The position numbers and the translations under genes were made by a program. A DNA stretch of 31,163 bases, from positions 1 through 31,163 of IMG/VR virus record IMGVR_UViG_3300037276_000071. One strand, written 5' to 3'. This stretch comes from a virus. Lineage: Duplodnaviria > Caudoviricetes. Every line of letters starts with the position of its first letter. Position 1 is the stretch's first letter. A model generated the notes under the pieces. That model was given only the letters and a program-made list of their open reading frames with translations, ran no database searches and was not told the DNA's origin. Shown in pieces: positions 14,373-28,615 of the stretch.

Positions 14373-14621
14373 TTATTCTGCGGGTGATGCGTCAATAGCT
14401 TCTACAGGTGCTACAGCAGCAACGAAAGGCATCCAGTCATCAGCCCAAAAGTCATCGACTGAAAAAATAAAGTTACCTGCATTAGGATTAGGTATTAACA
14501 CGATTTTCCAAACATACTGCATACCTGTCATTAATTGTAAATAACCATCTTGTTCAGACCAATTTCCTCTAACCATAGGAACACCATTTTGCAGTTGAAC
14601 TAATGCATCTTGAAATAACAT
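14373..14621 (-). CDS. DUF2829 / Thoeris anti-defence 2 (Tad2)-like protein
   Basis: 'MLFQDALVQLQNGVPMVRGNW...FSVDDFWADDW' fits the F..AL..L..G..V.R..W and D..A.DW signature; AAGGAG RBS. Confidence 0.65.
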   Translation of the reverse strand: MLFQDALVQLQNGVPMVRGNWSEQDGYLQLMTGMQYVWKIVLIPNPNAGNFIFSVDDFWADDWMPFVAAVAPVEAIDASPAE

Positions 14622-14654
14622 CTTCACTTCTCCTTGTTGTTTAAAATAATTTAA

Positions 14655-14738
14655 TCAATCAGATTCTCTAGCCATCCTACCGCCATAGCCAGAACCATCA
14701 CCATCACCATATTCCGGGTTATATAGTTCAGTCGTCAT
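14655..14738 (-). CDS. Gly-rich peptide 3 (27 aa, MTTELYNPEYGDGDGSGYGGRMARESD)
   Basis: ATGA overlap with the stop of 14735..14983; first 11 aa identical to peptide 2. Confidence 0.55.
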   Translation of the reverse strand: MTTELYNPEYGDGDGSGYGGRMARESD

Positions 14739-14999
14739 CTAGATTCCCCAGAGCCAAAGACAGAGCCAGAGCCCATACCATAGCCAGAACCAGATCCACA
14801 ACCATAGTCATTACCAGATCCAGAACTAGAACCAAAACCATATTCATTACCAGATACACAACCAGAACCATCCCCACTTGCGGAGCTTTCACCACAACCC
14901 GCACCAGATCCAGAACCATAGTCATAAAAAAAGTAATCGATAAATCCCGTACCATATTCCGGGTTATATAGTTCAGTCGTCATCTAGATTCCCCAGAGC
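14706..14999. repeat. Perfect 49-bp direct repeat (14706-14754 and 14951-14999), with a 13-bp partial copy at 15400-15412
   Basis: ACCATATTCCGGGTTATATAGTTCAGTCGTCATCTAGATTCCCCAGAGC occurs twice; it encodes the junction SGESR-stop/MTTELYNPEYG. Confidence 0.95.
14735..14983 (-). CDS. Gly-rich peptide 2 (82 aa, G-X repeats)
   Basis: MTTELYNPEYG...GSGSGAGCG...GSGESR; ATGA overlaps at both ends. Confidence 0.7.
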   Translation of the reverse strand: MTTELYNPEYGTGFIDYFFYDYGSGSGAGCGESSASGDGSGCVSGNEYGFGSSSGSGNDYGCGSGSGYGMGSGSVFGSGESR

Positions 15000-15078
15000 T
15001 ACAGCCAGAGTCAGAGCCAGAGCCAAAACCATAGCCAAAACCGTCGCAATAATCCAAGGAATAACCCAAGGAATAACC

Positions 15079-15420
15079 TTATTCATAACTATCATCACTA
15101 TTAGATCCGGCGCCATTACCAGAGCCAGAGCCATCACCCCATCCATAGCCGGAGCCAGAGCCATTTTCATAGCCAGAGTCATCGCCATACCCAGAACCAT
15201 AGCCATCGCCACAGCCATAGCCATCGCCATAGCCATAGCCATAGCCAGAGCCAGATCCATAGCCATAGCCATAGCCATCGCCATAGCCAGATCCAGAGCC
15301 AGATCCAGAGCCATAGCCATAGCCATCGCCATAGCCATCGCCACAGCCATAGCCATCGCCATAGCCATAGCCATAGCCAGAGCCATAGCTAGAGCCAAAG
15401 TTATATAGTTCAATGCTCAT
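15079..15420 (-). CDS. Gly-rich peptide 1 (113 aa, GYG/GSG/GDG repeats); frame continues past the TAA to 14980
   Basis: TAATG coupling with the upstream gene; MSIELYNF leader; built from 6-nt units GGCTAT/GGCTCT/GGCGAT. Confidence 0.75.
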   Translation of the reverse strand: MSIELYNFGSSYGSGYGYGYGDGYGCGDGYGDGYGYGSGSGSGSGYGDGYGYGYGSGSGYGYGYGDGYGCGDGYGSGYGDDSGYENGSGSGYGWGDGSGSGNGAGSNSDDSYE

Positions 15421-15719
15421 TAAGCAGACCAGACCGGAACGCTTAATATACTCAATCGTGCGGCTTCTGTTACATCTAATATCTCAATGACATCTAATAC
15501 CTCAACTCTGTCAACTTCACATGGGAATTTGCATTTCTCAGGCAGTTTGGTGCCTTCCATTGCTAGTTGACTTAGACTTGCTGCGCCGTGCCACATCCAC
15601 AGTCTACGTGCGTTTTTTAGAACAACTTCTTGGCCATTCCTTTGCTCTAAAAACCCAGCAAAGCATCCGGCATAATTAGAGCGTACAATTACATATTTTT
15701 TTTCATTACTTTGAGTCAT
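15420..15719 (-). CDS. Small protein with Sm/LSm-like strand pattern (recalled as DUF6948-like)
   Basis: 'KKYVIVRSNYAGCFAGFLEQRNGQEVVLKNARRLW.W.GA.SLSQLA' pattern seen in phage proteins next to Gly-rich ORFs; AGGA RBS. Confidence 0.65.
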   Translation of the reverse strand: MTQSNEKKYVIVRSNYAGCFAGFLEQRNGQEVVLKNARRLWMWHGAASLSQLAMEGTKLPEKCKFPCEVDRVEVLDVIEILDVTEAARLSILSVPVWSA

Positions 15720-15755
15720 ATTAGATCCTATTTTATTGATTTTAAATTATGTTAT

Positions 15756-16025
15756 TTATGGCAAAACCGTTAACTGGCAAGAGCCATTTGAGAATACAGG
15801 TTTAAAAATTTGATGGCCATCTGATGCGACAGTTAATACGAAATCAGTGGGTAATAATGCAATATTTTGAGTATGAAGAAATTGATCTAAAAATCCTGCT
15901 GTGGAAACTTGCTCTAATGTTGCATTGGGGCAATATAATCTACCATCCCGTGGAACAACGCCGTTAGCTTGTCCTGCAAAATTTAATATTAATGTAATTT
16001 GATCTTGTTCTGATTTACTAAACAT
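15756..16025 (-). CDS. Hypothetical protein (89 aa)
   Basis: AAGGA RBS; globular composition; no recognised family. Confidence 0.7.
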   Translation of the reverse strand: MFSKSEQDQITLILNFAGQANGVVPRDGRLYCPNATLEQVSTAGFLDQFLHTQNIALLPTDFVLTVASDGHQIFKPVFSNGSCQLTVLP

Positions 16026-28160: not shown

Positions 28161-28240
28161 AGATTAATAGTAGATTAGTTGATCACATGAGAATGTATTT
28201 ATAATCAAACACTTACTTTCAAAAAATGATAGGGAATCAC

Positions 28241-28615
28241 ATGAACTTCATAGAGGCAATGAATTGTTTAACATCTGGATCAAAAGTAACACGGTACCCA
28301 TGGAAAGAAACAGTTTATTTTTTAAAAGTAGGCGATGAAGTAAAGTCTTTTCAACCTGTCGTAGGACCTTATCTTTTTGATCAAGACATTATGATATCGG
28401 ATGGCTGGATTATATCAGGAGAAGAAGGAGAGCATAAATTTTCAAATACAATCCCTTATTTACAAAAAGGATGCGCAATAAAACGTAATGATTGGAATAA
28501 ATTAAACGTATCGCTAGACAGAGAAACAAAAACTCTTTTAATTACCTCCATTGAAATATCGCCCTATATTCCAACGTTTGAATCATTTTGTGCTATAGAC
28601 TGGATTGAATTATGA
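28241..28615 (+). CDS. Tandem DUF2829/Tad2-like two-domain protein
   Basis: Unit 1 'MNFIEAMNCLTSGSKVTRYPW...DIMISDGW'; unit 2 'KFSNTIPYLQKGCAIKRNDW...PTFESFCAIDW'. Confidence 0.65.
   Translation: MNFIEAMNCLTSGSKVTRYPWKETVYFLKVGDEVKSFQPVVGPYLFDQDIMISDGWIISGEEGEHKFSNTIPYLQKGCAIKRNDWNKLNVSLDRETKTLLITSIEISPYIPTFESFCAIDWIEL

Follow-up and report, generated by a model that had tools for sequence, protein, structure and literature searches.

Between the portal gene of a P22-like podophage and the gene for its terminase large subunit, on the minus strand, a small gene predicted to encode an Sm-like barrel is followed by open reading frames (ORFs) in which Gly alternates with a second residue (Gly-X). 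Are the barrel and the peptides a dedicated pair, how did the peptide array arise, and what could a barrel do with a peptide of such low complexity? The window that we analyzed is a stretch of 31,163 nt that carries portal, coat, scaffold and terminase genes and has a CheckV completeness of 89%. Its sequence is shared with DNA runs from peat and permafrost, 14 of which contain at least half of its words, and one of these 14 may be the run that it came from. In run X4, a single contig of 32,141 nt connects both sides of positions 14600-15800, which implies that the genome is circular, with a size of about 32.8 kb.

A two-gene cassette between core phage genes

The stretch that holds the barrel and the peptides (Table 1) is missing at this site from each of the 61 relatives whose terminase-portal interval is complete; in 48 of the 61, the flanking genes are adjacent at an empty site, about 6-23 nt apart. 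The cassette is a mobile two-gene unit, inserted at the terminase-portal site in this phage. A contig of run X6, in which the end of the 89-aa ORF (15755-15790) runs into sequence resembling the start of the Tad2-like ORF, probably comes from a related phage with an empty site. The 89-aa ORF, possibly a head-assembly gene, is found at 50-80% identity across the terminase-portal intervals of the relatives that carry it. The Tad2-like ORF sits before the portal gene with the 89-aa ORF always nearby, a constancy that is unusual for an anti-defence gene; a second Tad2-like ORF lies at 28226-28615(+). Scanning for promoters and terminators gave signals at chance level only.

Table 1 Features of the cassette and its flanks (positions in the window).
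Feature	Positions	Strand	Remarks
Inserted cassette, approximate extent	14641..15755	-	Between two core genes of the phage group
89-aa ORF, no known family	15756..16025	-	Flank, not part of the module; in 60/61 relatives
DUF6948 (PF22253) gene, 99 aa, predicted Sm-like barrel	15420..15719	-	E 4e-30, 104 bits
Gly-X peptide 1, 113 aa	15079..15420	-	Starts MSIELYNF; net charge -14; TAATG overlap with barrel gene
In-frame remnant, 29 codons	14980..15069	-	After the TAA of peptide 1; ends GESR; purity 0.30
Gly-X peptide 2, 82 aa, degenerate	14735..14983	-	MTTELYNP...GESR; purity 0.33 (5/120 family members lower)
Gly-X peptide 3, short (27 aa), degenerate	14655..14738	-	MTTELYNP...RESD; purity 0.47 (13/120 lower)
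49-bp exact direct repeat, copy 1	14951..14999	.	Tail codons, GGGGA, ATGA overlap, leader codons
49-bp exact direct repeat, copy 2	14706..14754	.	Collapsed as a 49-nt contig in other runs
Tad2-like ORF (PF11195; 22.2 bits against a cut-off of 25)	14373..14627	-	Flank, not part of the module; in 61/61 relatives

The original prediction held that the barrel and the Gly-X ORFs form a two-part system, and suggested counting how often such ORFs follow homologues of the barrel gene. The linkage proved to be close in both directions. A Gly-X ORF lies downstream in 137/137 distinct barrel copies that have at least 150 nt of downstream sequence. The full set has 154 distinct copies, drawn from genome bins, viral contigs and four phage records of GenBank; most were collected by pattern and are close relatives at 52-74% identity, and the 7 without a Gly-X match have less than 70 nt downstream. 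Barrels of GenBank phages at 34-41% identity likewise have a Gly-X partner in 4/4 records examined, of 15 matches. Conversely, a DUF6948-type gene lies upstream of 61/69 Gly-X loci, the other 8 being without a barrel match; this count is based on a DNA repeat-pattern scan of 10 of the 64 parts of the collection (121 loci), is restricted to the 69 non-duplicate loci with 700 nt upstream (51/120 shorter loci were omitted), scores as upstream matches four 'fused' labels that are other-frame overlaps, and includes three barrel matches that are 744-1377 nt away and several that are weak (E to 6e-4).

Across 152 barrel loci the pair has no conserved third companion: among ORFs of at least 70 aa within about 3 kb of the barrel, the largest true neighbour cluster, SSB, occurs in 13/152. 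The commonest neighbours (SSB, YopX, Gp157, integrase, helicase and annealing proteins) are of the replication and recombination type, so the module usually sits in early accessory regions. One locus (L050) has three barrel matches, implying that the whole two-gene module can be repeated. Another (L024:1147-1497(+)) has a second, more distant barrel-like ORF near the DUF6948 gene, without a Pfam match and belonging to a cluster found in 3/152 loci. Homologues of the barrel, which is present once in the window record, are abundant, forming no fewer than 2768 close clusters and, at an identity of 50%, 2466 representatives, and occur in genome bins of many phyla, with 52-74% identity kept across distant hosts; none was found in 14 control genomes.

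The arrangement of the reading frames indicates that translation of the barrel and the peptide is likely coupled. In 123 loci the peptide frame crosses the codon for the last conserved Trp of the barrel, and the triplet there is ATG in 112/123, compared to an expected rate of 27% taken from A-ending Val/Ile codons elsewhere in the same barrel genes (binomial p about 1e-50, a statistic that ignores relatedness); this excess favours coupled translation. More broadly, an ATG lies within -25..+30 nt of the barrel stop in 136/147 loci. The window is an exception, in that the triplet over the Trp codon is CTG and the start of peptide 1 has shifted to the TAATG overlap. We rejected a programmed -1 frameshift that would fuse the two proteins; a slippery heptamer occurs in only 5/123 overlaps, all of them A7 runs, and the overlaps have ATG instead.

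Local duplication in the peptide array

The 99-aa ORF and the three ORFs that start MxxELYN (113, 82 and 27 aa) are present as first described, and the details of how they are joined needed correction. The barrel gene and peptide 1 do overlap at TAATG, and peptides 2 and 3 are joined by ATGA, but the ATGA overlap that leads into peptide 2 comes from the 29-codon remnant and not from the 113-aa ORF. Similarly, the endings GESR and RESD hold for peptides 2 and 3, but the first ORF, which was also said to end GESR, ends ...SDDSYE at an in-frame TAA (15079-15081), with GESR following 33 codons later in the same frame. A restart of the remnant at TTG 15069, behind TAAGG, is possible. Contigs of runs X7, X2, X4, X5 and X9 span the TAA without a differing letter, and we therefore rejected an assembly error as its origin, although these five confirming peat runs may be one campaign. 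The repeat count in the core of peptide 1 is that of the record itself, since contigs of the other runs leave out 15180-15401.

The common starts and ends trace to a 49-bp exact direct repeat that reads GGGGA, six bases, then ATG, so that the simplest account of GESR is that it translates a stretch resembling a ribosome-binding site together with the ATGA overlap. In other runs, the 49-nt contig has a depth about 2-3 times that of the flank, contig depth not being a copy number. The codons for ELYN are identical in all three starts, with no synonymous change, as expected from a recent duplication. Moreover, MxxELYN is specific to the window: ELYN occurs in 1/125 complete partner peptides, and that one is the window-identical locus. 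These observations do not support the idea that a constant leader and a variable core reflect design. Gly-[SYD] purity is 0.79 in peptide 1 (0.94 over residues 1-78, the end having decayed), compared to a family median of 0.83 (n=120). The array is thus probably a tandem duplication of the junction, with peptide 1 intact and the others decaying duplicates, and peptide 1 is the probable working copy. Tandem Gly-X arrays occur in 13/113 loci, including the window-identical one, and mostly repeat their own local starts. As a local and probably decaying amplification, the window's own array is less informative than first thought.

The predicted barrel and its acidic partner

The barrel belongs to DUF6948 (PF22253), a family without a described function, far above the gathering cut-off of 27 bits and over positions 1-84 of the 85 in the profile. 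The Sm-like fold that had been proposed from its strand pattern is supported by a predicted model (pLDDT 94) with strands at 9-14, 18-28, 31-39, 69-74 and 77-82, a helix inserted in loop L4 and a further, C-terminal helix (85-93) after beta5. In a wide structural search with this model, Sm/LSm chains make up nearly all of the top 37 rows, Lsm1, Lsm8, SmF and SmAP being the best matches; the highest score is Z 6.8 (rmsd 2.4 over 62 residues), and a Z under 8 can reflect a common arrangement. Foldseek matches in the PDB are all of the Sm/LSm type, with a best E of 3e-3 and none reaching 0.001, and in BFVD the model matches DUF6948 with a TM of 0.93. Searching PDB sequences with the barrel profile gave no real match to solved chains. 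In a profile search, DUF6948 is the sole family at E up to 0.01, a search that remote LSM/Hfq members can escape.

Across 151 rows, an Arg/Trp set (R13, R38, R39, W41, W43 and W97) is conserved at 88-99%, together with G45, A46, S50, C63, F65 and E79. Sm proteins have an N-terminal helix before beta1 and a loop-L5 Arg-Gly that lies in the uridine pocket. The barrel model has no helix before residue 9, ahead of beta1, and neither a loop-L3 Asp nor a loop-L5 Arg-Gly is conserved; with the loops assigned from the strands of the predicted model, positions 26-31 and 74-77 are variable in the 151 rows. The mid-beta2 Gly, named with the loop-L3 Asp as a conserved Sm feature in the accessible part of PMC3710371, is kept (G22 in 99% of rows). 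The barrel is not strongly basic, with a median net charge of +1 and 0 in the window's copy; given this near-neutral charge and the missing Asp, RNA binding is not implied. The protein is therefore predicted to have an Sm-like fold, yet it misses features that define RNA-binding Sm proteins, and we do not class it as one.

Sm-like proteins are already known from phages. [quoted passage not shown] A putative cyanophage protein is an Sm-like pentamer, according to the available portion of PMC3710371, and this structure (PDB 3by7) aligns with the barrel over 73 residues (Z 6.1).

The partner peptides have a median length of 81 aa, half of it Gly, and their starts and ends are not conserved. X is Ser in 35%, Tyr in 28% and Asp in 22% of cases; His (1.3%) and Cys (0.7%), whose codons are one transition away from that of Tyr, are scarce, suggesting selection on residue type. 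Net charge is negative in 122/125 complete peptides (median -9), and disorder is predicted (Atlas pLDDT 0.37). We found no Pfam or PHROG family above cut-off for the Gly-X partner. These genes are often mis-called, for example under the names 'fibroin' or 'Lamprin', and in MT192033 (L083:3279-3540) the GenBank annotation over the Gly-X gene is in the wrong frame, as an Ala-Met repeat. We rejected the target of a diversity-generating retroelement as an explanation of the variability, as there is no reverse transcriptase among the 34 window ORFs or the 23 neighbour clusters, and the codons are mostly TCY, TAY and GAY, not evenly adenine-derived NNY.

Codon use within the cores is strongly skewed. 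GGC makes up 63-82% of Gly codons even in loci under 40% GC (background 18%), TCY makes up 93-96% of Ser codons (background about 34%), and Shine-Dalgarno-like 5-mers are depleted (202 vs 369 +/- 23). The dominance of GGC and TCY extends across 125 Gly-X loci irrespective of genome GC. A survey of low-complexity regions in prokaryotes and phages found GGC to be the commonest Gly codon in such regions, and does not mention the barrel/Gly-X pair in its accessible part (PMC6821194). We rejected an anti-Shine-Dalgarno explanation, by which GGT would be avoided ahead of Asp so that no such match arises (0.18 vs 0.14-0.16).

Behind 38/120 Gly-X ORFs, the frame continues into a non-repeat tail of at least 40 aa. 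Of these tails, 27 belong to one unnamed 150-aa family and 9 are weakly DUF7666-like (best E 0.0011, below cut-off); wherever the flank suffices, a barrel lies upstream, in 18/18 cases for the former and 3/3 for the latter. The 150-aa domain (L245:1036-1485(-), L258, L279 and 24 other loci; P0282-P0401) has conserved His, Ser, Cys and Arg residues and no Pfam, PHROG or PDB match; it falls into 5067 clusters, and one source names Bacteroides caccae. The DUF7666-like tails (L276, L314, L320, L324 and 5 others) are paired with a divergent barrel subgroup. Sequence searches of the PDB with both partner-domain profiles gave no real match, and we found no relevant paper on DUF7666 or ECX21941. Co-evolution of barrel and partner domain was rejected as a conclusion: partner-domain labels do group together when placed on the barrel tree (9 changes vs 22.7 when shuffled), but kinship suffices to explain this.

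A Gly-X stretch of 6-92 residues is present in 120/120 of the listed homologues of the 150-aa tail family, and its order is scrambled between near-identical flanks, which argues that order is irrelevant; judging from these sequences, composition and register seem to matter. In-frame fusions of barrel and Gly-X are rare. Five are clear among 150 representatives, in both orders (P0136, P0230, P0269, P0164 and P0165); each forms a cluster of its own and might reflect a frameshift error or a faulty gene call. None was found among the 154 barrel loci or among the 11 matches of a search for longer proteins, and a single-sequence fold of P0230 was uninformative (pLDDT 37).

Possible roles of the pair

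Hfq offers a precedent, combining an Sm-type core with an acidic disordered segment that mimics nucleic acid on that core, as described in the accessible part of PMC5606850. By this analogy, we propose that the acidic peptide, defined by its composition, binds the Arg/Trp surface of the barrel as a detached Hfq-like acidic tail, sometimes carrying a folded domain; we put the probability of this reading at roughly 0.38. The barrel and the predicted-disordered peptide would be made in step. With Tyr, Asp and Ser spaced by Gly, the peptide would resemble a single-stranded nucleic acid and dock repeatedly on the surface formed by the invariant Arg and Trp residues. Once docked, it could gate the access of the barrel to RNA or a host target, as the Hfq tail does in cis, and in phages where the Gly-X ORF carries a folded domain it would tether that domain.

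The facts beneath the detached-tail proposal are the two-way linkage, the kept ATG, the limitation to Ser, Tyr and Asp, the variable order and length, the rare fusions and the insertion of the pair. Several points speak against it: the barrel is near neutral, a purely protein-level role leaves the GGC/TCY bias unexplained, the fusions are singletons, 8/69 Gly-X loci have no barrel match, and the structural scores (Foldseek E 3e-3, Z under 8) weaken the Sm-like premise. The differences from known tails are also clear. Unlike in Hfq, the segment is encoded by a gene of its own, its Gly-X alternation is strict and its length varies, and the barrel has the L4 insertion and the C-terminal helix, its structural match to Hfq being Z 3.6-3.8. 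Arg-Gly dipeptide-repeat tails exist in the Sm/LSm family (PMC3710371, accessible part), whereas the repeat here is acidic Gly-Ser/Tyr/Asp and is encoded in trans. We regard as doubtful a bolder form of the proposal, in which, across phages, an Sm-type ring would read the shuffled polymer as a peptide substitute for single-stranded nucleic acid, with each subunit taking a single side chain. The polymer would serve as a docking tag by which exchangeable folded domains, from two or more unrelated families, are brought to a scaffold while infection proceeds.

Alternatively, and close to the role listed first in the original prediction, [G/S]Y[G/S] motifs might let the peptide associate with itself, giving condensates or reversible fibrils that the barrel would nucleate or load with RNA. 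Eukaryotic RNA granules, which contain LSm domains accompanied by low-complexity regions, provide a parallel; the predicted disorder and order-independent composition fit as well, as do the 19 motifs in peptide 1. The four stretches of the array contain 19, 2, 1 and 1, however, with one motif each in peptides 2 and 3, and the negative charge would disfavour both self-association and RNA binding unless a counter-ion or basic partner were present. We consider this role unlikely.

It also seems unlikely that the peptide serves in counter-defence, as an abundant decoy for host enzymes with single-stranded nucleic acid as their ligand or with Ser, Tyr or Asp as the residues they modify, or that it is an antidote to a barrel harmful on its own. 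Tight translational coupling is typical of toxin-antidote and counter-defence pairs, and the module is accessory, mobile and very widespread; its insertion here adjoins the Tad2-like gene. But that gene is core, present without the cassette in all 61 relatives, and the scanned neighbour clusters include no recurring gene related to defence. The identity kept by the barrel across distant hosts would be more in line with a constant partner than with an arms race.

A role for the hexamer-repeat RNA or its translation, with the barrel binding the mRNA or the repeat sensing tRNA supply to control genes downstream, and with the peptide as a by-product, is quite unlikely. The codon bias and the depletion of Shine-Dalgarno-like 5-mers point in this direction, and Sm proteins usually bind RNA, as the accessible text of PMC3710371 states. 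Against this, the third bases of Tyr and Asp codons in the cores track genome GC, almost a third of the Gly-X ORFs (the 38/120 above) run in frame into tails, there is no fixed downstream gene to regulate, and repeat homogenisation could yield the codon bias without selection. The proposal of an array of RiPP-like precursors, which drew on three ORFs with a common start and variable cores next to a recognising partner, is largely refuted and very improbable: an exact DNA duplication found at this one locus makes up the leader and tail, the later copies are degenerate, and no enzyme recurs among neighbours whose top clusters are replication and recombination genes.

While phage Sm-like proteins were already known, the barrel/Gly-X pair is a widespread, unstudied module. 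It is common and near-obligate in both directions in phages of hosts from many phyla, and our search, made mostly outside subscription journals and supplements, found no paper on DUF6948 or on the pair. If binding of the peptide by the barrel is shown, the ligands known in Sm-fold biology would include a hypervariable peptide besides RNA, and the pair would provide a small, testable bacterial model of how low-complexity domains are recognized.
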